From NCBI GenBank assembly GCA_964646765.1, contig CAZYIA010000001.1, forward strand, positions 341,621 through 405,620: a stretch of 64,000 nucleotides of DNA, written 5' to 3'. This document shows positions 4,118 to 48,565 of the stretch, piece after piece (positions within the stretch are counted from its first letter, which is position 1; each line of letters opens with the position of its first letter). Position numbers and translations under genes: made by a program. The notes beneath the pieces are model-generated. The model worked only from the letters and a program-made list of their open reading frames with translations, was not told the origin of the DNA and ran no database searches. Source of the stretch: an uncultured Candidatus Saccharibacteria bacterium (GTDB lineage Bacteria > Patescibacteriota > Minisyncoccia > Phycocordibacterales > UBA9973).

Positions 4118-5140
4118 TTAGAGCCTTCGCAAGCGATTACGAACGTACTCGATAATAAAGTTTTTCACATATGCGAGCGGGCGAATCACCAAGTCGTGCG
4201 CATGAAGATACGCAAAGTCTTTTCCGCCAAATCCTCGTTTAAAAATCGAAATTGGGTAAAAACGATGCTTGATTTGCCCAAGAGGAGCGACACCCCAGAA
4301 GTTGTGCACTTTGATTCCACGACGCTTTGCCTCTCGTATTGCTTCCCATTGGATCATGTACGCTCCTGGATGCTTACGGCCCGCCTCGGTACTTGCACCA
4401 TAATGATATGCAGATTCAGTGCCATAAAAAATAATAAAAGCGTAAGCTAAAACATCACTTCCAAGTGTTGCTGTATAGAGCACTGCATGGCCACTCTCGG
4501 TAAAAATTTTGAATTGCTCATGTAAAAATTCGTAGCTAAACGGCACAAAGCCTTGGCGTTTTGCCGTCTCACATTGCACATCATAAAACGGACGAATAGC
4601 ATTAGGGTCAGTTGTTTGCGATACGGTAATTCCCTCTTTGATACCTTTTCTAATTTCTGCTCGAGTTTGCTTACGCATGTTCGCCATCAAAGCCTCTTCA
4701 TCAAGCGTAATATCGAGCTGTGAAGTAAGTTCAGCGTGTAAATGCGATGGAGCTCCTCGGAAACCAAGACGAGAGAAGAGTGCTCTCGTTTCTGACGTAT
4801 CTTCAATTTGTGGTCTGACGCGAACAAATGCGGCCTGCTCTTTGTGAGCGACCTCTTTCATAGTCGCAAGAATAGCAGCAACAACCTGATCATTATGCCA
4901 ATCAATAATTGGCCCCGCGGGAACCGTTACATAGATTGCCCGACGGGACTTCTCAACCACAAGAAGCATGACACCCACAAGCTTTTCGTTATCATAAAAA
5001 CCAAATCGATGAATGGATTTTTTTAGTGCCTTATGAAACTCACCCCAGTACCACGAATGCAAGAAGTTGGCTTCAGGCCGCGTAGTAAGAAATGTTTCCC
5101 ATTCTGCCTTATTGATTATTTCTTTTGAGAGGATTGCCAT
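4118..5140 (-). CDS. FemAB-family peptidoglycan interpeptide bridge aminoacyltransferase
   Basis: FemAB/FemX-like sequence over the full 340 aa. It lies next to other cell-wall genes. Confidence 0.7.
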   Translation of the reverse strand: MAILSKEIINKAEWETFLTTRPEANFLHSWYWGEFHKALKKSIHRFGFYDNEKLVGVMLLVVEKSRRAIYVTVPAGPIIDWHNDQVVAAILATMKEVAHKEQAAFVRVRPQIEDTSETRALFSRLGFRGAPSHLHAELTSQLDITLDEEALMANMRKQTRAEIRKGIKEGITVSQTTDPNAIRPFYDVQCETAKRQGFVPFSYEFLHEQFKIFTESGHAVLYTATLGSDVLAYAFIIFYGTESAYHYGASTEAGRKHPGAYMIQWEAIREAKRRGIKVHNFWGVAPLGQIKHRFYPISIFKRGFGGKDFAYLHAHDLVIRPLAYVKNFIIEYVRNRLRRL

Positions 5141-6294
5141 GTCGTTACGTATTTGCTGATATACTCTGCGATTTCTGGAGTAATTCCTATGTGCGTCGGC
5201 AGGTTCATGCTCTTTGTCGCTAACTGCCGCGCCCCAAGGGCTGTGTGGCCTTGATCAAACGCGGCCCAGAATCGTTTCGGCGAAACAGGGACATCATACC
5301 AGATATCAGAAAGATAGATGTTTTGTGAATGAAGATAAGCAACGAGAGCACCACGGTTGTCAATGACAAGCGGAAAACGTAGGCACGTAGAAAATGGAGT
5401 GAGAGGATTAGAACCAAAATACTTTTCATATACACCAGCAATTGTTCGACGATGTTTAAGCTGTGCCTGTAGCTCATTGAATCGCAATAAAACTAATCCC
5501 GCATACCAACCTGGCAACCCTTGGACTGGAGATTTTTCTAGTGTCGCAACCGGTTTTGGAAATAAACCGATGAGTGCAAAAAAACGGTGAAGTATTTTAC
5601 CGAGACCAAATGAATATGTTTGACGAACTAAAAGCGTAACTAGAGGATATAAACGGTCACGCAATTGTTGCTTAAAGGATACAGAAGTAAAAACAGGAGG
5701 TTCTAGGGTGAACTTTGTATTTCGAATAACTAGCGCTCCCCCGGAAACCGCATCGAGAATTTTATCTTGAGAAAATGAAAATACGACGCAGTCGCCAACC
5801 GTACCCATGACTTTTCCATTTACATATGTTCCCCCAACACTGTGAGCAATATCCTCAATGAGCACAAGATTTTTCTCAGCGCAGATTTTCTGAATTGGCT
5901 CAATATCGGCAGGATATCCCAACGTATTTTGGATAATAACAGCTTTGGCATCTGGATGAACTACGAGAACGTTAGCAAGTTCTTGAGCGGAAAAGTTAAC
6001 GTTTGGAGCGGTAATATCAACATACACTGGCACAAGCCCTGCATGCGAAACAGCAATAACTACTGCGGCACAAGTATACCCGGAGACAATAACTTTTGAC
6101 TGCGGCGGCAACTTTGCCGCAAGGAGTGCGAGCGTTAGAGCTTCACGGCCTTTATAGGTAAGATACGCTCTACCCCCATACTCTCGCTCTAAATATGCAC
6201 TAAGCATTTCCTTATTATTTTCAGCACGCGCAAAAAACGTTTGCCAGGCAAACTGCCACGTATAATTTGATCCAATTGAATTAAAAACCACCAT
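5116..6294 (-). CDS. DegT/DnrJ/EryC1/StrS family PLP-dependent sugar aminotransferase
   Basis: The family-typical layout is present, including FSFSQDKIL, which carries the putative Lys that binds PLP. Confidence 0.7.
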   Translation of the reverse strand: MVVFNSIGSNYTWQFAWQTFFARAENNKEMLSAYLEREYGGRAYLTYKGREALTLALLAAKLPPQSKVIVSGYTCAAVVIAVSHAGLVPVYVDITAPNVNFSAQELANVLVVHPDAKAVIIQNTLGYPADIEPIQKICAEKNLVLIEDIAHSVGGTYVNGKVMGTVGDCVVFSFSQDKILDAVSGGALVIRNTKFTLEPPVFTSVSFKQQLRDRLYPLVTLLVRQTYSFGLGKILHRFFALIGLFPKPVATLEKSPVQGLPGWYAGLVLLRFNELQAQLKHRRTIAGVYEKYFGSNPLTPFSTCLRFPLVIDNRGALVAYLHSQNIYLSDIWYDVPVSPKRFWAAFDQGHTALGARQLATKSMNLPTHIGITPEIAEYISKYVTTWQSSQKK

Positions 6295-7000
6295 GACTGA
6301 GAAATGATTGTACCTGATTAAAAACTTCTTGTGGATGCGTTACATGCGGAGAATGTCGTGCACCGTCAATAATTACAAGTTGGGAGTTCGCAATTCCCTC
6401 CTTAAAACGGTATCCATCGGAAAGTGGAGTGGAACCGTCATTCTTACCCCAAATAAGTAACGTGGGTGCTGTAATGGCTTGAAACACCGGAGCGAGGTCA
6501 ACACTGATCAGATTCGCCATGGTTTTACGCATTACTGGCGTAGCTTTTTCGTAATCGTGCTCGCGAGCCAGTTTATAGAGAATACGGCGCAAAAATTCGA
6601 TGCTGCCCAACAGCTTGCCGACACTCGCCAGAGTGCCAAAGATTGCACGCTTCAGACGAATGCGGAAGTCGTTGTGATATATACCCGCCGCTCCAATCAG
6701 TATAAGCGCGCGAACTTTTTCGGGATATCGGCTGGCAAACAATGTACTAATTCTTCCTCCGTTGGAGTGTCCCAACAGAATCACTGGTTCCGTTTCGTCT
6801 TTCAACGTATCTTTGAGCCACACAACATAATCATCGAGCGTCCACGGCCGATCAATTGGTGCGGTAAGTCCGGGCACCGAAAGAAGTACTGGCGTATACC
6901 CCGCTTTCGTAAGAAGTTCATAAAACTCTTTCCAGCCACTCGTGTCATAAAGCCAGCCATGTACGATATAGATTTTTTTTGTTTTTTCTAAAGCCCCCAT
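6281..7000 (-). CDS. Alpha/beta hydrolase
   Basis: Nucleophile elbow GHSNGG. The overall length and pattern fit the alpha/beta hydrolase fold. Confidence 0.6.
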   Translation of the reverse strand: MGALEKTKKIYIVHGWLYDTSGWKEFYELLTKAGYTPVLLSVPGLTAPIDRPWTLDDYVVWLKDTLKDETEPVILLGHSNGGRISTLFASRYPEKVRALILIGAAGIYHNDFRIRLKRAIFGTLASVGKLLGSIEFLRRILYKLAREHDYEKATPVMRKTMANLISVDLAPVFQAITAPTLLIWGKNDGSTPLSDGYRFKEGIANSQLVIIDGARHSPHVTHPQEVFNQVQSFLSHGGF

Positions 7001-8253
7001 TGTGCTCGACGATCATCCCAAATCTTTCCGCGACGGCAGAGAAGATTTCGATCGTTTGTATTATACAAAAGATGTTCGATCACACCTTCAAGAAACCGGG
7101 CTCCTTTAAATAAAAGTGCTTCACCTCCCTGAATGTTTTTTTTGAGATACTCTAACGCTTCTTTTGGCGTTTCAAATGAGACTATATCTTTCGCGAAATC
7201 TGATTTAAAAAGTATTGGGTAGGTATACTCATGCAGCCGTGGTCCAACGAGCACAACGCGCTCAGGTGCAAAAGCAATGATATGCTGGGCGAGTTTTTCA
7301 TGCTCTTCGCGCTCATAGGCACCGAGCTCAATCATGTCGCCCAACACCAGCCACTTATGTTCGGCTGGATACTCTTTAAACAGAGTAAGCATGGCAACCA
7401 TACTCTTAAGCGACGCATTGTATGAACTATCGATAATGGTAAGGCCGTTAATTCCTTGTAGAATTGTCCCTCGAGACGGCGGCAAGTGGAAACCTGGAAA
7501 TGACGGATTGAAAATAATTCCTAACTCGCTGCAAAGTAATTTCGTCATACAAACAGCTACTGCGACTTCTTTCGGTACCAGCGCCGGAACTTGTATTGTT
7601 TCCCCATCTTTAAATATGAAATGAGTTTCAGATTTTGTGAGCTGATAGGAAGAAAGTTCTTCGCTTGGTCGCATCTCAATAACTTTTTTTGCTTTGGTCC
7701 GAGAAAGTTCTCCAATGATTTCTGGAACATCCCCATTCACCAACACTAGATCTTGTGTTTTTTCTATAAAATATCCAAACTCATGCGCAGTTGCTTGCTC
7801 GATAGTCTCACCTTGTTTTGATACAAAATTGCGACTATGTGTTCTACTCAAACTTCCCCACAAAGTTATGTGTGGACGAAGCAGCTCTGCAAGAAATTGA
7901 CCTTCTCGCGGTCGCTCACAGTCAGCTTCAACAACATATATTTTTTCTTCAGGAAGTTTTGTAAAAAGTTGGAAAGGTGCACGAATGAAAAAAATCGGCC
8001 ATTCGATGAGGCTAAATGATTTTCGTTCCAATCCTAAAATATGAAATGGAATGCCAAAAGCGCTATTGGCATGATGAGAATAGATCGCCTTACCGCCAAA
8101 TTGCGTTTCCACCATATGGAGCAAGGTTGTTTTGCCAGAAGAGCCAGTAATGACAATGATTTTGGGCTGCCAATGGCGAAGTCGAATTGCAGCAAAAAAA
8201 CGGAAATATCCGGCAACAAAAAAATAGAAAAACCGCTTTAGCCTCGAAACCAT
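6988..8253 (-). CDS. Mur ligase family protein (MurF-like)
   Basis: P-loop IIVITGSSGKTT plus Mur ligase middle and C-terminal-like regions. Confidence 0.7.
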   Translation of the reverse strand: MVSRLKRFFYFFVAGYFRFFAAIRLRHWQPKIIVITGSSGKTTLLHMVETQFGGKAIYSHHANSAFGIPFHILGLERKSFSLIEWPIFFIRAPFQLFTKLPEEKIYVVEADCERPREGQFLAELLRPHITLWGSLSRTHSRNFVSKQGETIEQATAHEFGYFIEKTQDLVLVNGDVPEIIGELSRTKAKKVIEMRPSEELSSYQLTKSETHFIFKDGETIQVPALVPKEVAVAVCMTKLLCSELGIIFNPSFPGFHLPPSRGTILQGINGLTIIDSSYNASLKSMVAMLTLFKEYPAEHKWLVLGDMIELGAYEREEHEKLAQHIIAFAPERVVLVGPRLHEYTYPILFKSDFAKDIVSFETPKEALEYLKKNIQGGEALLFKGARFLEGVIEHLLYNTNDRNLLCRRGKIWDDRRAQWGL

Positions 8254-8295
8254 AGAGACATCCTAGCATGAAATGCTATACAATGATGCGCACTG

Positions 8296-8367
8296 GCTTC
8301 CGTAGTTGAATGGATACAATATCTCCCTCCGAAGGAGGAGGTCCCGGTTCGATTCCGGGCGGAAGCA
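8296..8367 (+). tRNA. tRNA-Arg(CCG)
   Basis: Acceptor stem GCTTCCG/CGGAAGC. Anticodon stem TCTCC/GGAGG with loop CTCCGAA. T-arm CCCGG-TTCGATT-CCGGG. Confidence 0.75.
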
Positions 8368-8374
8368 CTCGGAT

Positions 8375-11300
8375 CTACTGTCCTTCTAACACTGCATTCA
8401 CCTGTGTACGTGTAACCGGACCAAAGTAGCCTTTAGCTGGAGAAATACGGTGAGCTTTTTGATAAGCAGCTAGGGCGCGCGTTGTTTTGCGGCCAAAGAA
8501 TTTCGTTTCGTGGCCAGGAGAACCTCCACCAGTTGTTGCTATCGAGAAATTATTATCATTGAGATACTTTTGAAGCAGCAGCACGTCTTGGTCAGTCATT
8601 CCCTCTTTCAAATTCTTTAAGAAGAGATGTGGCTGTTTTTTTTCAGGCTGCGGTGATTGAGTATCTGTTTTTACCGAACCAATAGTTCCCCCAATTGGAG
8701 AAAGTGGGCTGCTAACTAAAGTAACAATACCTCCACCAGAACTACCAGAACTTAATCGGAACGAGTAGCTACTATCATTACCAACTTCAACCCAGCCAAG
8801 CGCTGACTCACTATCACCTTCATTACTTACCGTGCTTACAATCCAATAATAGGTTCCGGGTAAAAGTGTTTGCCCTGGATTGCCTTGATAGTAAGTTCCA
8901 CCAAGAGCTTGCTGGCCAACCCTAAAGGAACTTGGGCCTGCTTCACCTAAAGCAGATTCGTACGTGATGAGTGTGTTGTTATCCATCAATGGATACGTAT
9001 TTCCAAGTGCAAACATATAGCCAACATGGGCAAGAGGATCGGTATGAGATGTCGTAAAGGTAAATGTTGGCTGAGTATCGTGGGTACTACCATTATTTAT
9101 TAGTGTTGCTGGACCAAGATTCGTTGGCACTCCTGGTGTACCAGCACAAGTAACATGAATAGTTACCATACCAATATCGGTGCCGCCGTGTTGGTCATCA
9201 ATGTTGTAGGTAAAACTGTCTGTGCCACAAAAATCAGAATCTGGAGTGTAGAATCCCACTCCAGTTCCTGGCGAAATAGAAGCTTCACCATGAGCTGCCT
9301 GGGTTTCTAAGCCATCTCCCAAAGAGTCGCCATCAGGATCAGTGTCGTTATCAAGAACTGCAATCATTACGCCTTCACGCTGTGGTGTGGTAACTTCATC
9401 ATCAACAGCAACTGGATTTTGATTCGGACAAGTAACAGTCACATGTACCGTAGCGTTAGCTGTCGCGTTTGAGGTATCAGAAATTGTATACGTAAATGAG
9501 TCAGAACCACAGAAATCTTCTTGGGGAGTATACAGAATGCTGCCATCAGAATATTCTGTATTAGCGTGACCAGAAAAACCAACGCCAGTGAGGGTAATTG
9601 CATCAAGGTCAGGATCAGAGTCATTTGCCCGAACATCGAATAGTGTTGGTGTGTTTATAGCAATAGTAAACGAATCATCAACGGCAAGTGGAGAATCATT
9701 AACCGGCGGTGGAGGCGGTGCAATATCACAGTGAACAGTAATCGTCACTGTCGCAGTAGCTGTATCAGTTCCATCAGATACCGTGTACTCAATCGTATCG
9801 TCACCGCAGAAATCTGTGTTAGGCGTATAGCTAAATCCCGAACCCGTACTCGTAGCATCGCCATGATGGGTAGTAAAATCAGTTATAGAAAGAGAATCAT
9901 CATCCGCGTCGGAGTCATTTACCAGAGCATCAAGTGCGTTCAATGAGGAATTTTGTTCTACAGTATATGCGTCATCAACAGCAACTGGTGCAGTATTTCC
10001 CCCACCACCTCCACCACCAAGTGCATCAACAGTGAGGCTCGCAGTATCAGTATCGATAGAAAATGCTGTGGTGCCGCCATTGGTAGTTGTATCTACGCTG
10101 GCTCCATGGCTACCGCTTGTTTGATCCCAAGCTCGGAAAGTAATAATGTCGCTAATAGTACCGCTATACCCTGGGTTTGGCTCACAATAAATGCGATCAG
10201 TCGTTGAAAGTAGCTGCGCAGAATCGTCAGCTACAGCGCCAAATAAATTCCACGTACTACCAGAATCAGTCGAGTAACGACAGGTTGTGTTAACGGAATC
10301 TATTCCAGTCACAGCGATACCGTACAATGCTCCTGAATCAACATCGGTAACATTATCCAATCCACCAATAATAGTAGCCGAGTCTACTAAATTAGAAACT
10401 AATGTTCCTACCGCACCACTAGGTGCGCCATCACCTTCAGTAACCGAATTAAAGACTGGGCTTTTTGAGTTGTCTAGCACGGGCGCATCGTTTACTGGAG
10501 TTACAAAAAGACCAATAGTATCCGTAGTATTTGAAAACGCAGTCGTCCCGCCGTTAATAGAAGGATTAGCTGTCCCCCCGTCACTACCGCTTGTTTGATC
10601 CCAAGCCCTGAAAGTTAATGCTGTGAATGATCCACTAGCATCGGCATTCGGTTGGCAGTAGATGCGGTTATCTGCATCCGCGGTAAGCAATCGAGCTACT
10701 GTAGCCGACACGGAGCCGAACAAAGACCATGTGGTTCCACCGTTTAGTGAATAGTAACAAGTTAGGCTGGAATCCTGCGCAATAACTGCGATACCAAGCT
10801 GGGCGCTACTATCACTATCTGTTACGTTATCAACTTGCCCAACAGGAGAAGCGAAGTCAACCAAAGATGCCACAAGCGTGCCAACTGCACCGCTTGGAGC
10901 TGAAGCATCTTCACTTACTGATGAGAGAGTTGGGCTCTTGGAAGCGTCGAGAACTGGTGCATCGTTTACTGAAGTACCTGTCATAGCCTTACTACCTGAT
11001 ATAGACAAAGCGCCGTCGCTAACGTTTGTTGTAATAGTAAAGTTGCTGCTGAAATTTGCCGACGGAGTAAACGTAAGGGCCGCAAGCAGTGTATTCACAT
11101 CCGCAATTGCACCACTGGCAGTCCAAACGCCAGTACCGGCGTTATACGTTGAGGTGACGGCGTTTGAAGTGGCGGTATTAAAACTTCCAGCTGCTGCATT
11201 TGAAAGAGTGAGTGTAGCGGTAACGTTTGCACTATCTACATCGCTTACAATAATATCGGTCAAATTCTGAGCCACATCTTCAGTGTATGTTTCAGCAGCA

Positions 11301-13141
11301 CTTAAGTTTGTAGCTGTCGGTGCATCATTAACCGCAGTACCGGTCACAGCTTTTGCTCCTGTCACCGCAGCAGCAACGCCATCACTTACTGATGTACTGA
11401 TAACAAAATTACTATTGAAGTTTGCCGTTGGAGTAAAGGTAACACTTGCAAGTAAAGTATTCACATTGGCAATTGCACCACTGGCAGTCCAGACACCAGT
11501 ACTAAACGTTGAGGTCACTGCTCCGGAAGTCCCTGTTGAGAGTGAACCGGCCGAAAGATTTGAAAGAGTCAACGTGGCAGTAACCGAGGAACTATCAACA
11601 TCTGTTGCCACAATATCTATGAGATTGAGTGGTGTATCTTCTGTGTATGTTTCAGCGGCGCTCAAGTTAGTTGCAGTCGGAGCATCGTTAACAGCTACTC
11701 CCGTCATTGCTTTCGAGCCAGTTACGCTTAGTGAACCATCACTTACGCTCGTGGTAATTGTAAAAGGACTATTGAAGTTAGCTGCGGGAGTAAACGTAAG
11801 TGCTGCAAGTAATATATTTACATTCGCAATTGCACCACTGGCAGTCCAAACACCGGTGCCGGCATTGTATGTAGATGTTACGGCCCCAGAAGTAGCAGTA
11901 TTAAAACTTCCGGCTGCAGTATTAGAGAGAGTGAGCGTCGCGGTAACGTTTGCACTATCTACATCACTCACAACAATATCGGTAAGATTAAGCGAAGTAT
12001 CTTCAGTATAGGTTTCTCCGGCACTAAGATTAGTTGCTGTCGGAGCGTCGTTAACCGCTACTCCTATCATTGTCTTTGAACCAGTTGCACTCAACGAACC
12101 ATCGCTCACGCTTGTCGTAATAGTAAAAGAGCTATTAAAATTCGTTGCCGGAGTAAATGTCAGCGCTGCTAACAACACATTCACATCCGCAATCGCACCA
12201 CTCGCAGTCCAAACACCAGTACCGGCGTTATACGTTGAGGTGACGGCGTTTGAAGTTCCGGTGTTGAGACTTCCAGCTGCAGTATTAGAGAGTGTGAGCG
12301 TGGCGGTTATATTTCCCCCATCAACGTCACTCGCAACAATATCAGTTAGATTAAGTGGTGTATCTTCCGTATACGTTTCAGCAGCGCTTAAGTTGGTTGC
12401 AGTTGGAGCACTATTGGCTGGTTTTAAAATCACAGTAAGGACAGCTCCGTAACCAGCGTTTGTGTTAGCTGTTGCCGTCAAACTTCCAGTAGCTGTTGCA
12501 CTTGTTTGAAGAAGGTAATCACTTTCCATTGAGATACCTGAAGTATTTGGCGTAGTAAGAGAGGAAAGATCGGATGACTCTGTCATGCCCGCAGGTGGTG
12601 TCCATGTACTAGAATGTTCATACTCAAAAAAACTCAACACCATAGCTCCATTTACGCTTGGAGTAACACTACCAACGGTGTGTGAGAGACTAGACGCAGT
12701 ATCTGTTCCCAAGTACGTATCTATCGGGCTACTCGTATCCCCTCCGGAAAATGCCATTGTGCTGCCGACAACACCAGTGTTCGTGCTTACTGTCCAAGTA
12801 TAGGAACTCGGCTCTGATCCAGTTGCAACCTTGTAATACACAGAGAGCCTTGTTGAAGTATTATTTGTATTAAGTACCGTTTGTATAGTCGTCCAGCCGG
12901 AAGGAGCAGTTATAGTTGCAGTTGATGAACGCACTGAAACTGCCGTAATAAGTATGTCGCCAGACGTTGTGCCAGTTGGTTTAGCTATTGAAAGACTCCC
13001 ACTTGTTCCGGTATCTGTGCTTACTGAACGATAACTGAGAGCCGCAAAAGCATTACTTGGCTTAAAAACAAATACGCAAAATGCAATGACAAGAAAGATA
13101 AATGGTGAGATTCTTTTCATGATTAAACTACTGTCGAGCAA
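8375..13141 (-). CDS. Giant secreted cell-surface protein of about 1580 aa. It carries tandem NDAP/cadherin-like repeats, sialidase-like (BNR-like) regions and a C-terminal peptidoglycan-binding domain.
   Basis: The N-terminal signal peptide is MKRISPFIFLVIAFCVFVFKPSNAFA. There are four tandem units of about 122 aa. The C-terminus has a PG_binding_1-like motif, LLLQKYLNDNNF...[11 protein letters not shown]. The true start may be the second Met. Confidence 0.8.
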   Translation of the reverse strand: MLDSSLIMKRISPFIFLVIAFCVFVFKPSNAFAALSYRSVSTDTGTSGSLSIAKPTGTTSGDILITAVSVRSSTATITAPSGWTTIQTVLNTNNTSTRLSVYYKVATGSEPSSYTWTVSTNTGVVGSTMAFSGGDTSSPIDTYLGTDTASSLSHTVGSVTPSVNGAMVLSFFEYEHSSTWTPPAGMTESSDLSSLTTPNTSGISMESDYLLQTSATATGSLTATANTNAGYGAVLTVILKPANSAPTATNLSAAETYTEDTPLNLTDIVASDVDGGNITATLTLSNTAAGSLNTGTSNAVTSTYNAGTGVWTASGAIADVNVLLAALTFTPATNFNSSFTITTSVSDGSLSATGSKTMIGVAVNDAPTATNLSAGETYTEDTSLNLTDIVVSDVDSANVTATLTLSNTAAGSFNTATSGAVTSTYNAGTGVWTASGAIANVNILLAALTFTPAANFNSPFTITTSVSDGSLSVTGSKAMTGVAVNDAPTATNLSAAETYTEDTPLNLIDIVATDVDSSSVTATLTLSNLSAGSLSTGTSGAVTSTFSTGVWTASGAIANVNTLLASVTFTPTANFNSNFVISTSVSDGVAAAVTGAKAVTGTAVNDAPTATNLSAAETYTEDVAQNLTDIIVSDVDSANVTATLTLSNAAAGSFNTATSNAVTSTYNAGTGVWTASGAIADVNTLLAALTFTPSANFSSNFTITTNVSDGALSISGSKAMTGTSVNDAPVLDASKSPTLSSVSEDASAPSGAVGTLVASLVDFASPVGQVDNVTDSDSSAQLGIAVIAQDSSLTCYYSLNGGTTWSLFGSVSATVARLLTADADNRIYCQPNADASGSFTALTFRAWDQTSGSDGGTANPSINGGTTAFSNTTDTIGLFVTPVNDAPVLDNSKSPVFNSVTEGDGAPSGAVGTLVSNLVDSATIIGGLDNVTDVDSGALYGIAVTGIDSVNTTCRYSTDSGSTWNLFGAVADDSAQLLSTTDRIYCEPNPGYSGTISDIITFRAWDQTSGSHGASVDTTTNGGTTAFSIDTDTASLTVDALGGGGGGGNTAPVAVDDAYTVEQNSSLNALDALVNDSDADDDSLSITDFTTHHGDATSTGSGFSYTPNTDFCGDDTIEYTVSDGTDTATATVTITVHCDIAPPPPPVNDSPLAVDDSFTIAINTPTLFDVRANDSDPDLDAITLTGVGFSGHANTEYSDGSILYTPQEDFCGSDSFTYTISDTSNATANATVHVTVTCPNQNPVAVDDEVTTPQREGVMIAVLDNDTDPDGDSLGDGLETQAAHGEASISPGTGVGFYTPDSDFCGTDSFTYNIDDQHGGTDIGMVTIHVTCAGTPGVPTNLGPATLINNGSTHDTQPTFTFTTSHTDPLAHVGYMFALGNTYPLMDNNTLITYESALGEAGPSSFRVGQQALGGTYYQGNPGQTLLPGTYYWIVSTVSNEGDSESALGWVEVGNDSSYSFRLSSGSSGGGIVTLVSSPLSPIGGTIGSVKTDTQSPQPEKKQPHLFLKNLKEGMTDQDVLLLQKYLNDNNFSIATTGGGSPGHETKFFGRKTTRALAAYQKAHRISPAKGYFGPVTRTQVNAVLEGQ
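10980..12445 (-). repeat. Four near-identical tandem repeats of about 366 bp inside the giant gene's coding sequence
   Basis: The DNA motif ...gcagtccaaac.ccagtaccggcgttatacgttgaggtgacggc... recurs at about 11120, 11480, 11840 and 12210. The encoded protein repeats begin NDAPTATNLSA(A/G)ETYTED. Confidence 0.75.
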
Positions 13142-13226
13142 CTAAAAAACCAGCGGGATAAAAAACCTTCAAAAATTTCATACCGGAATTGTACTAAATG
13201 GAGAGTGAAATGACTATGGAAAAGTG

Positions 13227-13345
13227 ACGGGAAGAATTTTCCCTCGCCTCTTGCTGTGCCGTCGCACAGCTCGGGCTGGGCACCGCCTCGCGGTTTGCTT
13301 TGCTAAGCAAACAACGCTCCGGCGTTCGAATCCTTACGGAAGCAA
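13227..13345 (+). other. Copy 1 of a duplicated structured element of about 100 nt. It is a candidate ncRNA of unknown class.
   Basis: It is about 85% identical to 26871..26990. Its hairpins are CTGTGCCGTCGCACAG and TTTGCTTTGCTAAGCAAA. A TTCGAATCC T-loop-like motif follows. Confidence 0.4.
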
Positions 13346-13364
13346 TTCAAATTGCTTCCTCCCA

Positions 13365-13396
13365 GCGCACAGAAGAAAAAAGCTGTCCTAAAAGAC
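13365..13396. terminator. Bidirectional intrinsic terminator hairpin
   Basis: Sequence AAAAAAGCTGTC-CTAAAA-GACAGCTCTTTTT. U-tracts are present on both strands. Confidence 0.5.
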
Positions 13397-13520
13397 AGCT
13401 CTTTTTCAACGTGTGCAGCGTAGTAAAGGATATTAGAACTGAACTTATGAAAGTTAGCCCTAGTCTTTATGTGCCAAATTTGAGTGTTTGGTCGGAGTAG
13501 TAAGCAATAATTTACTTTGT

Positions 13521-14495
13521 TCAGCAATTTTCAATCAAATACTTCCTTACCATTGCCATTTCCTTATCCCTACCAGTCATATGCCAATATCGGAATTTCA
13601 TATAAGCGCTTAGAACGACGGCCGCGTGCAATGCTGATTTGTCATATGATGTATTGTCTGAGAAATAGCCTTCTTTTAATTTTTCAACATGGTCATAGTT
13701 GCCTAGTGCACTCAATATCTGAAGACTACGTCCGATGTCTATAATCGGATTATTGAACATTGGGTCTGGATCGATGATCGTGGGAGGGACAGATGCCATA
13801 ATATCGTCTACACAAAAATCCATATGACAATAAGAACTCTTTGGATTGCGTTCATCATAAGCAATAAGAGTGTCAATCACATTTGAGACTGGCCAAAGTT
13901 TCGTATCTAACAAACCAGCCTCCTCAACGTATTTGATTTTATTTTGCACTTTTTCACTCCTAATCCAATCCTTAAATGTCTTGTATTCTGCCTTACCATC
14001 CACAAGGTAGCCGTAACCTTCAGCGCTGGGCTTGTGCATAGTAAAAAGAATCTTTCCTAGATCGACCCATATATCACTCTTCACGAGGCCACTATTTATT
14101 GCTTCTGAAAGAACGGGTGCATCGATAAAGCTCATGAGTATGTAGGAGTAGTCTCCTAGTTTTCCCTCCTTATATATATGTGGCACAGTTACTCCAACAT
14201 CTTCCCATTTCTTTAAGAACAGAGCTTCTCCTTCGGCGTCAGGTTTCAAGGGAATTTTAAGAACATACTTATTAGTGCCTGCTTCAATAAATGCCACTAA
14301 GGCTGAGACACCTTGGTGGGAAAATTCCACGGAGATATCCTTACCAACGAACATTTCATCAGAAGAGAAAAAAGATTCTATAAGCGGAACAAGTGCTACG
14401 CGCCGATCATTGAATGTCTTATCAAACTCATGCTCTGAAAACCTTGGCTTATTTTTGTAATGTATCTGGGACATTAGGAAATTATAACGGAACAA
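13521..14495 (-). CDS. Phosphotransferase of the APH/choline-kinase fold
   Basis: Brenner-type catalytic motif HMDFCVDDIM and a downstream IIDPDPMF (DxD). Confidence 0.65.
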   Translation of the reverse strand: MFRYNFLMSQIHYKNKPRFSEHEFDKTFNDRRVALVPLIESFFSSDEMFVGKDISVEFSHQGVSALVAFIEAGTNKYVLKIPLKPDAEGEALFLKKWEDVGVTVPHIYKEGKLGDYSYILMSFIDAPVLSEAINSGLVKSDIWVDLGKILFTMHKPSAEGYGYLVDGKAEYKTFKDWIRSEKVQNKIKYVEEAGLLDTKLWPVSNVIDTLIAYDERNPKSSYCHMDFCVDDIMASVPPTIIDPDPMFNNPIIDIGRSLQILSALGNYDHVEKLKEGYFSDNTSYDKSALHAAVVLSAYMKFRYWHMTGRDKEMAMVRKYLIENC

Positions 14496-14542
14496 GAAAC
14501 CTGAGTGAAATTATGGAAAATAGTTTTGTGCGCCGGGAAGGA

Positions 14543-14557
14543 ATTTCTCGGCTTACA
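14543..14557. repeat. 15-bp direct repeat of the tRNA-Tyr 3' region. It is a putative attL/attR core.
   Basis: GTGCGCCGGGAAGGA is identical at 14543..14557 and 18876..18890. Confidence 0.5.
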
Positions 14558-14663
14558 GCCGCAGTACACCTTTTCGGCGAATTCAAAACAAGTTTCTCAT
14601 TTGCAGCGAAAAGCTCTTAGAATCCTTCCCGCGACTGAAGCAGTTCAGTCGCTCCGGCCACGT

Positions 14664-14689
14664 AAAAAACGGCCTTGAAGCCGTTTTTT
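14664..14689. terminator. Bidirectional terminator hairpin
   Basis: AAAAAACGGC-CTTGAA-GCCGTTTTTT. Confidence 0.55.
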
Positions 14690-14692
14690 AGT

Positions 14693-14890
14693 GTGTCTCT
14701 ATTGTACCAAGTTAGAACCTATTTCCAAAATAAATAAAGCGGACGAATTTTTGCGAAACAATTTTTCTGGGGAAAAGGATTCGCAAAAATTCGGCTGATT
14801 TTTTTTGAAATTCGGACTCGCCCGCGCGGAGGAGGGGTCTGGGGAGGAATCCGCGCGGGCTTCGGCTTTTTGTTTTTTGGCGGGGCGGGC
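14693..14890. repeat. IR1-L, a 198-bp perfect inverted repeat whose partner is 16809..17006
   Basis: Comparing the two arms by eye, they are exact reverse complements. Each arm contains a GC-rich hairpin, GCCCGCGCGGA...TCCGCGCGGGC, followed by a T-tract. Confidence 0.9.
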
Positions 14891-14928
14891 AAATAGAAAA
14901 AACAGCGAAAAAATGATAAAATGAATTT

Positions 14929-15423
14929 ATGGAAAATCCAGAGTTAAATCACGAAAAACCTCCTATTGCTGTTGAGAAAATATCTCACATTTTTTCGTCT
15001 AATGCCGAAAAGCGTATTTGTGTTGTTGGTGCAAGCTGTGTAGGAAAATCTACTTTACTTCGGTTTTTGCCAGAAGCTGTTGATATGGACGATTTGCTTT
15101 TCGGCAACAAACAAAAAGGAATTGAGCCATTACTTACACAACAAGAAAGAGATTATGTCTGTGGGCCTTGGACACCAGAAGTCGGTCAATTTATGACCAA
15201 GAAAGCCCACGAACTTATAAAAATTGAAGCAGGTCATCCAGTTTTCGGCACAATCGTTTTTCCATCAGATTTAGTAATTGAAGTGTCTGTTCCCGACGAT
15301 ATTTTACGAGAAAGGATTAGGCGAAGAAACTCAAATGAGCAAGATGTTTTTAACATGAAAGCACAAATTGAATCTGAAATTGAAAAGTCGGGTATAGAGA
15401 AAATTGTTATTGAAAATATATGA
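14929..15423 (+). CDS. Small P-loop NTPase (kinase-like)
   Basis: Walker A motif VVGASCVGKST. The protein is 164 aa. Confidence 0.45.
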   Translation: MENPELNHEKPPIAVEKISHIFSSNAEKRICVVGASCVGKSTLLRFLPEAVDMDDLLFGNKQKGIEPLLTQQERDYVCGPWTPEVGQFMTKKAHELIKIEAGHPVFGTIVFPSDLVIEVSVPDDILRERIRRRNSNEQDVFNMKAQIESEIEKSGIEKIVIENI

Positions 15424-16043
15424 AAATAATTCTCGCCTCAGATTTAAGTTTTCTTTTGAAATACGGTTATGATTTAACTGGCATTCCAAAGTCCGAAATG
15501 AAAATCGGATATATTACAACCGCTTCAAAAGGATCAAGAGATACGGCATTTCTTGAAAAAGTTAAAAATGCGATGAAAGAAAACGGTATTGATTTTGAGG
15601 AAATTGATATTGAGGGTAAAAGCAAAGATGAAATACTTAACTTTTTCAAGAACAAAAACATTATTCATGTTGAGGGCGGAAATACTTTTTATTTGCTAAA
15701 AGCAATTAGAGAAAGTGGTTTTGCAGAGGCACTGAAAGAATTATTGAACGAGGGGAAAATTTATATCGGCACAAGTGCGGGAGCGTATGTTATGTGTCCA
15801 ACTATTGAAGTAGCAAACTGGAATGAAACTGGTAGAGATAGATTTGGTTTAACTGATTTTTCAGCGTTAAATTATGTACCTTTTGTTTTGAAAGTCCATT
15901 ACAAAGACGAAATGGAAAATACAGTGAAAGAAAAAATGAGAACTCTAAAATATCCGCTTAGAATTTTGCGAGACGGACAAGGGATTTTGGTCGAAAATGG
16001 TGAATATGAATTTGTCGGAGATAATCCCGAAGTAATTTTTTAA
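15420..16043 (+). CDS. Peptidase family S51 (dipeptidase E / cyanophycinase-like)
   Basis: The family-typical HVEGGNTFYLL motif and IGTSAGA (Ser nucleophile region) are present. Confidence 0.6.
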   Translation: MKIILASDLSFLLKYGYDLTGIPKSEMKIGYITTASKGSRDTAFLEKVKNAMKENGIDFEEIDIEGKSKDEILNFFKNKNIIHVEGGNTFYLLKAIRESGFAEALKELLNEGKIYIGTSAGAYVMCPTIEVANWNETGRDRFGLTDFSALNYVPFVLKVHYKDEMENTVKEKMRTLKYPLRILRDGQGILVENGEYEFVGDNPEVIF

Positions 16044-16047
16044 ATTT

Positions 16048-16788
16048 ATGATTAAGCCCATTATTCTTGCAAAAGGAAATTTTAAGCCAGAAGATTTAAT
16101 GACAACAGTCAGTGAATCTAATAGGAAAATTGATCCGAACAGAGAAAATCAATTAAACACTCTTTGGGCGGAAAAAGAGAAGAATGCCAAAGAAAAGGGC
16201 AAATTAATATATAACGGACTTTCTTATCGCTTAAATAGCTTAAAAGCTGAAAATGGTAAATTGTTTTTAGATTTTGGAATTTTTGATTTTAAAACTAGAG
16301 AATGTTTACCGGAAACTCCCGGATTTTACGAAACGACGGAAGAATATTGGCGTAAAGGATGCCATACTATTGCTACAGTTAAAACCTCTGACGATAGGTA
16401 TTTAATGGTGGAACTTTCTGGAAAATCAATGAATAAAAACACAATTGAATTTTTGGGTGGCATAATGGAAACAGAACCACCAATAAAATTAGGTAAGGAC
16501 ATTTTCCATTCGTTATATAAAGAATTGGAAGAGGAAGCGTTTATTACTGAATCAGATATTGCCGATTCTAATTTAAAAATGGTTTATATAAATTGGAATA
16601 CAAATGTTGGTTTTTATTTTGAGATTTTATTAAAACTTACTTCAGAACAATTACAAGAAAGATTTAATGAACAAACAAAAGAAATTGATATTAAATCTCT
16701 AAAAATTATGTCTCGCCCAGAATATATCAATGTGTTAGAGAATCATAACCCTAATAAACAATTTTTAGCGAAGCAAATAGAGATTTAA
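16048..16788 (+). CDS. Hypothetical protein with a weak Nudix-like KELEEEAF segment that is not convincing
   Basis: The ORF is 246 aa. It is the third gene of the IR1-flanked cassette. Confidence 0.35.
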   Translation: MIKPIILAKGNFKPEDLMTTVSESNRKIDPNRENQLNTLWAEKEKNAKEKGKLIYNGLSYRLNSLKAENGKLFLDFGIFDFKTRECLPETPGFYETTEEYWRKGCHTIATVKTSDDRYLMVELSGKSMNKNTIEFLGGIMETEPPIKLGKDIFHSLYKELEEEAFITESDIADSNLKMVYINWNTNVGFYFEILLKLTSEQLQERFNEQTKEIDIKSLKIMSRPEYINVLENHNPNKQFLAKQIEI

Positions 16789-16808
16789 TAACCCCTTTTA
16801 GATTTTAA

Positions 16809-17006
16809 GCCCGCCCCGCCAAAAAACAAAAAGCCGAAGCCCGCGCGGATTCCTCCCCAGACCCCTCCTCCGCGCGGGCGAGTCCGAATTTCAAAAAAAA
16901 TCAGCCGAATTTTTGCGAATCCTTTTCCCCAGAAAAATTGTTTCGCAAAAATTCGTCCGCTTTATTTATTTTGGAAATAGGTTCTAACTTGGTACAATAG
17001 AGACAC
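16809..17006. repeat. IR1-R, a 198-bp perfect inverted repeat
   Basis: It is the reverse complement of 14693..14890. Confidence 0.9.
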
Positions 17007-17148
17007 CAGAATTTTACTAATCGGTTTTTTGGAAGCCCCAATGCGGGACGCGCGAAGCGCGTCCCAAGGATTCCCGCCGATTTTTCCTAATGAATTTGGA
17101 GCGTCGCCTTCGGCGACGCGCACTGTTTTCTCGCCAAGAAGCAGGTTC
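17004..17148. repeat. IR2-L, a 145-bp perfect inverted repeat whose partner is 18733..18877
   Basis: It is the exact reverse complement of IR2-R. It contains hairpins GGGACGCGC-GAA-GCGCGTCCC and GCGTCGCC-TTCG-GCGACGC. It overlaps IR1-R by 3 bp. Confidence 0.9.
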
Positions 17149-17344
17149 AAAATCAGAAGCAATTTTGACTCAGAGTATTTGCTTTGATACAAAAAGAATT
17201 TTTGCCTTTTTTCTAAAAGTAGTATAATGACCTTGCGCAAACTTACGGAAGGTCTATTTTAATGGCCGTCTTGGACTTATCTAGATCTTCTAGGTTTGCG
17301 CACCAGGGCGGCCATTTAAGTTTTATCAATTAATTTTTATTTCT

Positions 17345-18919
17345 ATGCAAAAATTCTTTTTGTATGCTCGCAAGTCAACCGATGTTGAAGATAAACAAGT
17401 GTTATCAATAGACGCTCAACTCACCGAATTGCGGGAGTTCGCCAAGAGAGAAAATTTAGTCATCGCCCGTGAGTTTATAGAAAAACAATCTGCTAAAATT
17501 CCAGGTCGTCCCGTTTTTAATGAAATGATGAAGTGTATTGAAAAGGGCGATGCAGATTGTATTCTCTCTTGGCATCCAGATCGTCTTGCCCGCAATTCAG
17601 TTGATGGTGGCAAGATTATTTACTTTTTAGACATCGGATTGCTTGCGAGCCTCAAATTCCCACAGTTTTGGTTTGAAAGTACGCCACAGGGCAAATTTAC
17701 GCTTTCTATGGCATTTGTACAAAGCAAATACTATGTAGATTCTCTTTCCGATAACACGAAAAGAGGACTTCGCCAAAAAGTACGCATGGGAATATTCCCA
17801 AGCCAAGCGCCAATCGGTTATATAAACGACAGTCGCACCAAAACGATTGTGGTAGAAAAGAAGAAAGCAAAAATCTTGCGCTTGGCTTTTGAACGATATG
17901 TGAAAGGAAATCAAAGGTTAGAGGATATCGCAACTTTTTTGGCAAAGAACGGAATATCTACGCGTTCCGGAAAGAGAATCTCAAAAACGAGAGTGGCTTT
18001 CATTTTGTCCAATCTGTTCTATGTCGGACTTTTTAACTATGCCGGTGAACTTCACGAGGGTAAGCACGAGCCAATCATTTCAAAGAAACTTTTTGATGAA
18101 GCACAGGAAATGCTGAAACTTCGTGGACAACCAGAGCGTAAACCACAAAATGAACCCCAATCTTTCTGCGGACTCATTTCCTGTGCCTCATGCGGGATGA
18201 TGATAACTGGCGAATACAAGGTGAAGAAACAGAAAAATGGCAATGTCCACAATTACACCTACTACCACTGCACGAAAAAACGCAAAGATATGAAATGTCC
18301 CGAACCTTGTATTCGGGAAGAAGAATTAGATCGCCAGTTATCATCTCTAATCAAAAAAGTTTCTTTGCCCAAAGACTGGGCGGAGGAATTGTTAAAAATG
18401 GCAGAAAACGAACATGGAAATTCCGCCCAGTCTTTGACTGCTTGTGTGAAAGAGAACGAAACAAAAATATCGGTCATTTCACAAAAGTTGGAGCGACTTC
18501 TTAATGGATATTTAGAGCAAGATATTGAAAAAGAAGTTTATCGCATAGAAAAAGCAAAACTTGTGTTGCAAAAGAAGTCGCTTGAAGAAGAAATGACCTC
18601 TCTTTCACACAAGCAGAATGATTGGCTCGAACCCTTTACCGAATGGGTGAAAGCCGCTCAATCATTGGACAAAATTGCTTCTGATGATGACCTTTTTGCA
18701 AAAAAGGTCAAAGCCAAAGAAATCTTTGGCTCGAACCTGCTTCTTGGCGAGAAAACAGTGCGCGTCGCCGAAGGCGACGCTCCAAATTCATTAGGAAAAA
18801 TCGGCGGGAATCCTTGGGACGCGCTTCGCGCGTCCCGCATTGGGGCTTCCAAAAAACCGATTAGTAAAATTCTGGTGCGCCGGGAAGGATTCGAACCTTC
18901 GCAGCCCGAAGGCGCTTGA
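17345..18919 (+). CDS. Large serine recombinase (resolvase/invertase catalytic domain, recombinase domain and zinc ribbon)
   Basis: Catalytic region YARKSTDVEDKQ..SIDAQ and W.PDRLARN. There is a Cys-rich zinc ribbon, CGLISCASCG...YYHCTKKRKDMKCPEPC. The 3' tail is encoded by IR2-R and runs antisense into tRNA-Tyr. Confidence 0.85.
   Translation: MQKFFLYARKSTDVEDKQVLSIDAQLTELREFAKRENLVIAREFIEKQSAKIPGRPVFNEMMKCIEKGDADCILSWHPDRLARNSVDGGKIIYFLDIGLLASLKFPQFWFESTPQGKFTLSMAFVQSKYYVDSLSDNTKRGLRQKVRMGIFPSQAPIGYINDSRTKTIVVEKKKAKILRLAFERYVKGNQRLEDIATFLAKNGISTRSGKRISKTRVAFILSNLFYVGLFNYAGELHEGKHEPIISKKLFDEAQEMLKLRGQPERKPQNEPQSFCGLISCASCGMMITGEYKVKKQKNGNVHNYTYYHCTKKRKDMKCPEPCIREEELDRQLSSLIKKVSLPKDWAEELLKMAENEHGNSAQSLTACVKENETKISVISQKLERLLNGYLEQDIEKEVYRIEKAKLVLQKKSLEEEMTSLSHKQNDWLEPFTEWVKAAQSLDKIASDDDLFAKKVKAKEIFGSNLLLGEKTVRVAEGDAPNSLGKIGGNPWDALRASRIGASKKPISKILVRREGFEPSQPEGA
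18733..18877. repeat. IR2-R, a 145-bp perfect inverted repeat
   Basis: It is the reverse complement of 17004..17148. It ends within the CACCA 3' end of tRNA-Tyr. Confidence 0.9.
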
Positions 18920-18958
18920 TTTACAGTCAAGTGCGATTGACCACTCCGCCACCGACGC
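18873..18958 (-). tRNA. tRNA-Tyr(GTA), type II, with CCA encoded
   Basis: Acceptor stem GCGTCGG/CCGGCGC. Anticodon stem CTTGA/TCAAG with loop CTGTAAA. There is a long variable arm. T-arm GAAGG-TTCGAAT-CCTTC. The 3' end is ACCA. Confidence 0.8.
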
Positions 18959-31198: not shown

Positions 31199-32815
31199 CT
31201 ACTGCTGTAATAACTTATAAGAAGCGGCACTATCTGCTTTCAAGAGAGTATCCAAAATAAGATTCACGATAAGCCATGCACACAAAATACAGATAAGACC
31301 AATGAGCATATTGATAATAACATGCTTCGCGCGGCTGCGAGCTTCTTCGCTGCCTCCTTTGGCAATGAAGAGGAAGCCAATATATACAAAACCAATAGCC
31401 ATAATTGGAATCGCAATAACAATGAGCCATTTGATCACATTATTTACGAGCTGTATCAGATAAGCAAACGTACACGGCTGCCATCGAGATCCATCACAGG
31501 GCACCAAGTTACCCGGAGCAACTAAAGGCGCTGACGGCCCGACTCCAGAATTAGTCCCTCCACTCGTACTGGAAGCTCCTCCGGTTGTACTACCAGCAGG
31601 AGTAAGAGTTGCCGTAAACGTTTTCGGCGACATATATGCTTTTGCCGGGTCATCGAAATTTACGAAGGTATAGTAGTAGGTATGGTTAGGTAAAAGCGAG
31701 TGCATGACAAATGGAAAAGTATCCGTATCACCCGCATTCATAATTCGGAAAAATACAGGATTTTCCCATAACTTATTCATAGAACTTGGAGAATCTCCCC
31801 AAACAAGACCAACTGAATAAGAATCCCCTTTGTAAATTTTAACTGACGCAGTACCACTTGCTTGACGATCGGTACCCGACGCATCCATAGCAACGGTAAT
31901 TGCGTTATCAGTAGTTACATCAATACATCGTCCGGTTATGGCTGGCGGTGGAATTGGTTGACCGTTTAGGCCTATAAGCGGCTGAGCATTACAGTTTGGA
32001 TCAAGTGAGAGTAGCTGAGTACCGTACGGGCCTCCAATAATAATGTGATCTGATACTGAAGCTTGATCAGTATCAATTGATTCAGACCACAACGCTGTAC
32101 TTTGACCTGAGAGATAAACCTCTACTTGATATGTTGAGGAAGGATCGAGGCCTGAAAGGGTAACATTAAACGGATACTCCTGCCCATACGTTACCATCTG
32201 TGAAAAAACCCCTGGTCCAGAAACTGTCTGGGGTTGTCCCCCACTTTTCGTATAATGAACTTCAAGATTAACTTGCGTTGAAAGACTTGAGCGCAACATA
32301 CCCGCAAGCACAATTGAAGTACTTGATTGAGTGTAATCTACCTCTGGAGTACTTCCATACGCTCCGGAAGGTTTTCGTATCTCAATTTCTGGAATGTCAC
32401 TCAACGTTTGAACTGCTGGTGGTGTTGCAATAAGATCTGCTGAATCACTTGTATCAAAAAAAGCAAAATCGTATGAAGTATTCGGAGTTAAGCTACCAAT
32501 CGTTACGGTAAATGGAACTGGTGTATTGAGTGCAACGCTTGATTGGCTGACAATATCATTTGAGACAACATAGGTATACTGTCCTCCAGTAACTCCCCAC
32601 TTTACTCGTAGATGTATTGGTGCATGCTGCCCAGGTGGATTGATGATGCTATGAATCGTAACAGTGCCAGCAAAATCCACTGAATTGATATGTGGGGTAA
32701 TTGAAGAAAAAGCAATATCTCTTTGGACATACGCAAAGGTATGTTGGGGTACCGACAAAAAGAGACCGAGTGCTAGGGTGAGAAGTGCGGCAAAACGAAA
32801 CGTTCGTTTGAGCAT
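31199..32815 (-). CDS. Large secreted protein (538 aa) whose C-terminus is a VirB2/TrbC-like pilin module
   Basis: A signal peptide and a large ectodomain of about 430 aa. The C-terminal two-TM module (GGSEEARSRAKH) is homologous to the four downstream genes. Confidence 0.55.
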   Translation of the reverse strand: MLKRTFRFAALLTLALGLFLSVPQHTFAYVQRDIAFSSITPHINSVDFAGTVTIHSIINPPGQHAPIHLRVKWGVTGGQYTYVVSNDIVSQSSVALNTPVPFTVTIGSLTPNTSYDFAFFDTSDSADLIATPPAVQTLSDIPEIEIRKPSGAYGSTPEVDYTQSSTSIVLAGMLRSSLSTQVNLEVHYTKSGGQPQTVSGPGVFSQMVTYGQEYPFNVTLSGLDPSSTYQVEVYLSGQSTALWSESIDTDQASVSDHIIIGGPYGTQLLSLDPNCNAQPLIGLNGQPIPPPAITGRCIDVTTDNAITVAMDASGTDRQASGTASVKIYKGDSYSVGLVWGDSPSSMNKLWENPVFFRIMNAGDTDTFPFVMHSLLPNHTYYYTFVNFDDPAKAYMSPKTFTATLTPAGSTTGGASSTSGGTNSGVGPSAPLVAPGNLVPCDGSRWQPCTFAYLIQLVNNVIKWLIVIAIPIMAIGFVYIGFLFIAKGGSEEARSRAKHVIINMLIGLICILCAWLIVNLILDTLLKADSAASYKLLQQ

Positions 32816-48557: not shown

Positions 48558-48565
48558 AAACGAGT

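Follow-up and report, generated by a model that had tools for sequence, protein, structure and literature searches.

Two paralogous genes and their layout

Within a 64,000-nucleotide stretch of contig CAZYIA010000001.1 (assembly GCA_964646765.1, forward-strand positions 341,621 to 405,620; hereafter the window), two genes on the minus strand, gene 1 and gene 2, encode long modular proteins that end in a PG_binding_1 domain. A first-pass annotation, made from the sequence without database searches, had described them as paralogous giant adhesin-like genes. The paralogy holds, with 55% identity over 408 amino acids (aa; E=9e-122), but 'giant' is overstated, as the complete gene 2 product has 970 aa and is large rather than giant. 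The closest named relatives of the GyrA encoded in the window (75-77% identity) are Candidatus Pacebacteria, Paceibacterota and Nomurabacteria, and the source organism is, as judged from sequence, a Paceibacteria-type member of the Patescibacteria (candidate phyla radiation, CPR).

Gene 1 occupies an uninterrupted open reading frame (ORF) of 1588 codons, counted from a TTG (8375..13141, minus). The ATG at 13120 is the likely true start on sequence grounds, and the database entry P0001 has 1581 aa at 100% identity, in agreement with the about 1580 aa given in the first pass. The gene is organized as follows.

8375..13120, minus: gene 1 coding sequence, complete, 1581 aa plus stop; the ORF reaches the TTG at 13141
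13043..13120, minus: Sec signal peptide MKRISPFIFLVIAFCVFVFKPSNAFA, followed by AL, with an AXA cleavage motif, read from the sequence
12416..13042, minus: N-terminal head of about 209 aa, an all-beta sandwich (AlphaFold2 (AF2), BFVD, phrog_3329, tblastn)
10967..12415, minus: four cadherin-like repeats in tandem, each about 121 aa (360-366 nt period)
10019..10966, minus: two 158-aa units, the module common to gene 2 (AF2 pLDDT 95.7)
9152..9997, minus: three Big_9 / tandem-95 Ig-like domains, with a Cys pair in each (Pfam, NCBIfam)
8747..9151, minus: domain of about 135 aa without family assignment, also present in the homolog P0041
8627..8746, minus: low-complexity linker of about 40 aa
8387..8626, minus: C-terminal PG_binding_1 domain (PF01471)

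A Gly7 spacer separates the 158-aa units from the Big_9 domains, and the domain at 8747..9151 has neither a Pfam nor a PHROG match. Positions 5000..11159 of the window, which include the 3' 2.8 kb of gene 1, are 100% identical in two independent short-read assemblies (Logan, SRR11845633 and SRR11845619). Both end at base 11159, within the fourth 121-aa repeat, and the number of repeats in gene 1 is therefore taken from a single long contig. The four repeats are 71-78% identical to one another in DNA.

Gene 2 runs off the window, as had been recognized: the ORF listed as 61477..63843 continues open in frame to 63999, with one further unit motif. The Logan contig L001, reached via a small gene neighbouring gene 2, matches the window at 100% identity over 7,397 bases and carries the complete gene (L001:4874-7786, 970 aa), including the 130 codons beyond the window edge, among them those of the Sec signal peptide, MKFINKRILLIIGFVLFMGSVNLAHA, followed by ANSAP. 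The complete protein comprises four units of 158-159 aa, one Big_9 domain, one fibronectin type III (fn3) domain, a linker and the PG_binding_1 domain; it has no separate head. The window holds the following parts.

61477..64000, minus: the 3' 2.5 kb of gene 2 (840 of 970 codons)
62404..64000, minus: units 2-4 (62404..63831) and the end of unit 1
62125..62400, minus: the single Big_9 domain (64.2 bits)
61837..62103, minus: fn3 domain (PF00041; 54.4 bits against a gathering score of 25)
61486..61734, minus: C-terminal PG_binding_1 domain

Most of the first-pass description of the repeats is accurate. The shared repeats, given there as about 150 aa, measure 158-159 aa and occur in two copies in gene 1 and four in gene 2 (three plus a fragment in the window). 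The motif described for them is found in the units as C/W-Y-Y-S/T-x-[DN]-x-G-x-[TS]-W, and the NDAP separators correspond to N[DS]AP at every module boundary. The domain annotation that had been recommended as a check finds PG_binding_1 in both proteins by Pfam, and neither ORF is interrupted.

Domain families and their variation

Pfam and NCBIfam assign Cadherin_5, Cadherin_4, Big_9/tandem-95, fn3 and PG_binding_1 in the two proteins. Gene 1 passes the curated cut-offs of the tandem-95 / Big_9 / bacterial cadherin-like family (NF012211, PF17963, PF17892, PF17803), with 197.9 bits for NF012211 (cut-off 90), 195 bits for Big_9 in three stretches and 160 bits for Cadherin_5, a single 121-aa repeat scoring barely over the gathering score of Cadherin_5/Big_9. 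Gene 2 exceeds the Pfam cut-off for Big_9 but, because it has only one such domain, misses the whole-protein cut-off of NF012211 (61.7 versus 90 bits). The 121-aa repeats of gene 1 are 70-80% identical in amino acids to repeats in proteins of many phyla. Such matches include P0002, P0004, P0015 and P0016, from the unrelated phyla of Tahibacter, Methylobacter and Planctomycetia, and their identity about equals that among the repeats of gene 1 itself. This similarity suggests, at the sequence level, either unusually strong constraint or horizontal spread of a cassette. A search with the whole of gene 1 against GTDB species representatives found no close relative, and the source species is thus not one of them.

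The 158-aa unit is predicted by AF2 to form a small beta-sandwich after an extended segment (pLDDT 95.7). It has no match in Pfam, NCBIfam or PDB sequence searches, and a Foldseek search of the model against the PDB returned no significant structural neighbour. The first-pass label 'BNR-like' does not apply: Pfam BNR (PF02012) scores 14.3-20.2 bits against a cut-off of 27, each unit has a single Asp-box-like motif, PDB sialidase profile matches have E>2, and the model is a beta-sandwich rather than a propeller. Across 103 units, the two Cys positions (CYYS...IYC) covary with Trp and Phe (C/C in 35, W/F in 42, mixed pairs rare), which indicates a structural contact. Scanning GTDB species representatives for TF[RH]AWDQT gave at least 598 stretches, 593 of them confirmed by tblastn; among the matches listed, the units occur mostly in Planctomycetota, Burkholderiales, Nitrospirota, Verrucomicrobiota and Flavobacteriales, in ORFs of 2000-4800 aa. 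For comparison of the ORF ends, 79 unit-bearing loci were kept. A unit and PG_binding_1 share one ORF in four of these, from Patescibacteria, Taylorbacteria, Nomurabacteria and one unclassified 'bacterium' metagenome-assembled genome, whereas the diderm unit proteins among them have 2000-4800 aa and no PG_binding_1. Likewise, 11 of the 120 best protein homologs have the peptidoglycan (PG) module (938-1581 aa); the remainder are longer and have none. Some of the latter carry RTX (PF00353), type IX secretion system (T9SS) sorting (PF18962) or DUF4347 (PF14252) domains, and the small number with names belong to diderm phyla. The simplest reading of these sequences is that stalk modules circulating widely among bacteria have been combined with PG_binding_1 in the CPR lineage.

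The C-terminal domains of genes 1 and 2 are 51% identical, and both exceed the PF01471 gathering score of 23, as the first pass had anticipated (30.1 bits for gene 1 in the whole protein and 39.1 for its domain alone; 28.8 for gene 2). PF01471 is matched by 11 of 11 C-termini of the family. A PDB sequence search with a single PG domain gave nothing significant, and the profile of the family C-termini (A4) alone succeeded, matching phiKZ gp144 (3bkh, 8e-12), the Streptomyces albus DD-carboxypeptidase (1lbu, 5e-11), SleB (6tci/4fet) and the LD-transpeptidase 4lpq (both E ~1e-11). Judged by the profile hidden Markov model score and by homology to solved three-helix domains, the PG_binding_1 membership is genuine. 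Other secreted proteins in CPR loci also end in this module, preceded by LamG, FBA-lectin, Glug, Big_5 or Big_13 domains, and it is most simply read, from sequence, as a general C-terminal display anchor of this lineage.

Both proteins have an AXA-type signal peptide and otherwise no hydrophobic segment. Sortase anchoring was rejected for both, as a regular-expression search and a hydrophobic-run scan found neither an LPXTG motif nor a C-terminal hydrophobic segment. Export by a type I secretion system (T1SS) with RTX repeats, as in LapA, was likewise rejected, there being no PF00353 match and a classical Sec signal peptide. Since no membrane segment, LPXTG or RTX/T1SS end remains after cleavage, PG_binding_1 would be the only plausible means of retention. 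In both mature proteins every cysteine has a partner in its own domain, which fits an extracytoplasmic, disulfide-stabilized protein, and the mature isoelectric point (pI) is 4.05. Genes for FemAB, a Mur ligase, an S13 DD-carboxypeptidase and VanY, found in the window and L001, indicate that the cell has a wall for such a domain to hold.

The head of gene 1 is predicted by AF2 as an all-beta domain (pLDDT 96.9). It has no Pfam match and no PDB sequence match, and Foldseek against the PDB was not significant. Against predicted viral structures (BFVD), however, 83 matches with E<1e-3 were obtained (TM 0.77-0.85), including mycobacteriophage 'minor tail proteins'. The head matches phrog_3329 (E=1.8e-11), and tblastn finds annotated minor tail proteins of Rhodococcus and Gordonia phages (33-44% identity over parts, E to 4e-8). 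An exhaustive profile search yielded 38,963 cluster representatives, commonly with several copies per protein. By sequence, the head hence belongs to a very large unnamed and mostly cellular family, of which phage tail proteins are one context. By analogy, this tail context agrees with a role in surface recognition.

The pace of change at the gene 2 locus can be read from a relative with a 93% identical GyrA. Its positional ortholog, P0037, has the same upstream neighbours as gene 2 (glyoxalase, VanY, cytidylyltransferase and RNA methyltransferase) and is 1245 aa long, arranged as two units, two cadherin-like repeats, two units, one cadherin-like repeat, fn3 and PG domain. As it is 49-62% identical to gene 2, against 93% for GyrA, the surface protein evolves much faster than the core genome. 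The first pass had proposed that the surface could vary through recombination of the paralogs, which is not borne out: genes 1 and 2 are 65-72% identical in DNA in short patches, with a longest exact match of 17 nt, and from these sequences recombination with each other appears unlikely. The comparison with P0037 instead points to change by gain, loss and substitution of modules rather than by exchange between the resident paralogs.

Proposed display mechanism and its alternatives

Based on the domain composition and the comparisons above, we propose with moderate confidence that both genes encode Sec-exported fibrillar surface proteins, non-covalently anchored to the wall and most likely adhesins. 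The first-pass suggestion of large wall-anchored surface proteins in an attachment lifestyle is to this extent backed by domain and sequence evidence. Signal peptidase I would cut between AFA and A in gene 1 and between AHA and A in gene 2, leaving no membrane anchor. The three-helix PG_binding_1 domain at the C-terminus, set off by a flexible linker of 30-40 residues, would then bind the peptidoglycan of the producer itself as the sole retention device, with the beta-sandwich modules projecting the N-terminus outward. In gene 1 this chain would comprise ten modules (four cadherin-like repeats, two units, three Big_9 domains and the unassigned one), in gene 2 six (four units, one Big_9 and one fn3). 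One intradomain disulfide, or a Trp/Phe pair, would stabilize each module, and cadherin-style acidic junctions (xNDAP/DxD) probably bind Ca2+ and stiffen the rod. Cadherin and Ig domains measure about 4-4.5 nm per module, from which a reach of approximately 45-50 nm is predicted for gene 1 and 25-30 nm for gene 2. In gene 1, binding would be performed by the distal lectin-like or phage-tail-like beta-sandwich head; in gene 2, which lacks a separate head, by the distal units.

Several points weigh against this proposal. No solved structure is related to the 158-aa unit or to the head, and the label 'adhesive' is for this reason given by analogy. The Ca2+-stiffened linkers, as known from cadherins, are suggested only by motifs, those of the xNDAP/DxD junctions, and by the pI of 4.05. 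The second canonical 'DG' of the PG_binding_1 motif is replaced in both proteins (KGYFGP and IGYFGP). Lastly, the proteins for which PG_binding_1 is best known are wall hydrolases rather than adhesins.

The most similar described proteins are extracellular ones with peptidoglycan-binding domains (PGBD) and Ig-like domains that are highly expressed in archaea-parasitising Paceibacteria and have been proposed to serve attachment (Kuroda et al., mBio 2024; PMC10936435). Compared by description, those of Ca. Paceibacteria (Ca. Yanofskyibacterium, Minisyncoccaceae) are like genes 1 and 2 in class, in secretion and in combining PG-binding with Ig-like/PKD-type domains. However, expression is documented for them, while genes 1 and 2 are known from sequence alone, and the 158-aa unit, the 121-aa repeat, tandem-95 and the phage-tail-like head are not described in that work. 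The protein type has hence already been noted in Paceibacteria, and genes 1 and 2 are an ordinary example of it. A literature search on Patescibacteria PG_binding_1 or cadherin-type Paceibacteria adhesins found nothing relevant, and several adhesins are essential in a cultivated Saccharibacterium (PMC10633639).

The stalk has its counterparts in diderm fibrillar adhesins (tandem-95/cadherin-like/DUF4347/RTX-type, LapA-like), which consist of the same blocks with acidic NDAP junctions; members from Planctomycetota, Burkholderiales, Nitrospira and other groups match the 121-aa repeats studied here at 70-80% and the 158-aa units at 50-64% identity. Genes 1 and 2 differ from these adhesins in lacking RTX nonapeptides, a T1SS signal and a T9SS or PEP-CTERM/MYXO-CTERM end, in being 2-5 times shorter, and in having a Sec signal peptide and a PG_binding_1 C-terminus. 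The anchoring logic, i.e. a Sec signal, functional or stalk domains and a wall-binding module, is that of monoderm wall-bound proteins (LysM, SH3b, GW, CWB, PG_binding_1), among whose non-covalent modules PF01471 is listed (Desvaux et al. 2018; PMC5817068). In Firmicutes and Actinobacteria PG_binding_1 accompanies mostly wall hydrolases, whereas here it ends long adhesin-type stalks. Sortase-anchored Ig-fold adhesins (microbial surface components recognizing adhesive matrix molecules, MSCRAMM) resemble gene 1 in the N-terminal head, the Ig-like stalk and the C-terminal wall anchor with the N-terminus out, but as genes 1 and 2 have no LPXTG, hydrophobic segment or charged tail, their anchoring would be non-covalent. 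The gene 1 head recurs, in sequence and predicted fold, in minor tail proteins of actinobacteriophages (Rhodococcus and Gordonia phages; phrog_3329); there the context is a virion tail, here a putative cellular surface fibre.

The main rival reading concerns the retention step. PG_binding_1 could grip the wall of a partner, the protein being secreted or loosely associated and gluing the epibiont to its host. CPR bacteria are often epibionts on walled hosts (PMC11665869), attachment to a host is what Kuroda et al. proposed for PGBD proteins (PMC10936435), and the PG_binding_1 domain of a phage endolysin, matched here as 3bkh, binds foreign walls from outside. Nevertheless, nothing else would retain the protein on the producer once the signal peptide is cleaved, and the PG module is always C-terminal behind varied N-terminal binding domains, the pattern of an anchor and not of a warhead. 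Methanothrix, one of the methanogenic hosts of archaea-parasitising Paceibacteria, is not known to contain peptidoglycan. Such Paceibacteria express PGBD proteins highly (PMC10936435), and host peptidoglycan is not the ligand there if the host has none. We regard a partner-gripping role as decidedly unlikely. Considerably less probable still, and very improbable overall, is a secreted wall-active enzyme or toxin whose catalytic domain is hidden in an unassigned region and targeted by PG_binding_1. Such modules are most often joined to hydrolases, two regions of gene 1 have no Pfam assignment, and the head weakly matches phrog_13624 ('hydrolase', 1.3e-5); but the head and the unit are all-beta sandwiches, no catalytic family was found in Pfam, NCBIfam or the PDB, and the repeat stalk makes up about 85% of each protein. 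That the repeat region is an assembly artefact or a decaying pseudogene has the least in its favour and appears extremely improbable: both short-read assemblies do stop in the 121-aa array at 11159, yet neither ORF is broken, an independent assembly has an identical gene 2, repeats at 71-78% DNA identity make collapse or chimerism unlikely, and many full-length homologs share the layout.

As to function, anchored fibres could form a non-adhesive coat (a shield against phages or predators, a spacer or a hydration shell) or trap polysaccharide or other nutrients instead of attaching cell to cell. The weak resemblance of the head to carbohydrate-binding or jelly-roll modules, the LamG and FBA lectin domains of related CPR proteins and the lack of a distinct head in gene 2 are in line with this, and the fast evolution of the ortholog (49-62% versus 93% for GyrA) fits pressure of a phage or immune type as well as host tracking. 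In contrast, the stalk modules are those of known fibrillar adhesins, and the phage relatives of the head reside in tail proteins, which recognize cell surfaces; a coat or capture role is unlikely in our estimate. Within the proposal of wall-anchored adhesins, a more specific version would regard the gene 1 head as a surface-recognition module like those on actinobacteriophage tails, held 45-50 nm out to select a host envelope. We consider this, too, unlikely. Fast diversification of head and repeats through host-range tracking would fit the same figures for the ortholog, and if the idea is true, proteins built from a signal peptide, a binding module, a stalk and PG_binding_1 would be host-range determinants of Paceibacteria.

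Attachment of uncultivated Patescibacteria outside the Saccharibacteria to their partners is largely unexplained, and genes 1 and 2 bear on this question. They represent a clean and complete example of an apparently general CPR display scheme, composed of a Sec signal, exchangeable modules and a PG_binding_1 anchor, in which stalk modules that in giant diderm proteins have other C-termini sit on PG_binding_1, i.e. a lineage-specific anchor swap. Current views are not overturned by the two genes; they are concrete candidates for surface proteomics, cryo-electron tomography and binding assays, and they contain two abundant, confidently foldable domain families that have no Pfam model, the 158-aa unit and the gene 1 head.

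Flanks and neighbourhood

The ends of both genes lie close to neighbouring features.

8296..8368, plus: tRNA-Arg(CCG), convergent with gene 1, its 3' end 6 nt from the stop codon
61422..61457, minus: intrinsic terminator after gene 2, with a 16-bp GC-rich stem flanked by an A-run and a T-run (-29 kcal/mol, z=-7.6)

The first-pass annotation had placed gene 1 immediately downstream of the tRNA, with 8 nt between them, and a strong terminator after each gene. The tRNA is indeed adjacent, but it is convergent and the distance is 6 nt. Of the two terminators, the hairpin after gene 2 stands and is probably bidirectional, as read from its sequence, and shared with the convergent gene at 61040..61390. 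None was found after gene 1, where the sequence directly enters the antisense of tRNA-Arg (folding z=-1.4).

Genes 1 and 2 had further been said to bracket the whole region. The interval between them contains genes for ParB, FemAB, a Mur ligase, ClpB, IF-2, GyrA, S1, HisRS and a DD-carboxypeptidase, as well as a low-GC island with a serine recombinase and a type III restriction-modification system. As this is ordinary core chromosome with an unrelated low-GC insertion, the two genes were rejected as island borders, and the bracketing is an artefact of where the window was cut. The island (45217..56000; GC 32-34% versus about 42%) starts at tRNA-Asn (45217..45289) and is probably an integrated mobile element. 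Its cargo comprises the serine recombinase (45250..46995, minus), the type III restriction-modification pair (48566..53108) and ORFs without assignment. A full-length match to the Rfam LOOT RNA (RF03000; 53172..53295, plus; 74.5 bits against a gathering score of 46.4) lies within the island, just beyond the type III methylase gene. In the relative with the 93% identical GyrA, the island genes are absent between HisRS and P0037 in the approximately 24 kb listed.

Directly downstream of gene 2, a copper-handling cluster (56337..61390) encodes a CsoR-type repressor, a P-type Cu-ATPase (57145..59538), an HMA-DsbD_2 protein, a cupredoxin and a GlpM-like membrane protein. The same relative has no such cluster at the syntenic place.

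Upstream of gene 1, a GC-rich segment of about 140 nt (13222..13362) forms five consecutive hairpins (z -4.0 on the minus and -4.6 on the plus strand). It is flanked by the terminator of the kinase-like gene upstream (13381..13400) on one side and by the promoter-like site of gene 1 on the other. It contains a T-arm-like string, GTTCGAATCC, on the plus strand and could be a small RNA, an att site or what is left of a tRNA; searching Rfam with the region upstream of gene 1, these hairpins included, gave no credible match. A few kb upstream of gene 1, a second lower-GC patch (14000..18958; 37-38%) contains a large serine recombinase gene (17345..18919, plus). Because the 3' end of this gene overlaps tRNA-Tyr (18873..18958, minus), the patch may be another integrated element. 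Elsewhere in the window, a 538-aa protein (31199..32815, minus) combines a C-terminal T4SS_pilin domain (PF18895) with a purple-acid-phosphatase-N-like Ig domain and is a probable surface or appendage protein of a type typical of CPR genomes.

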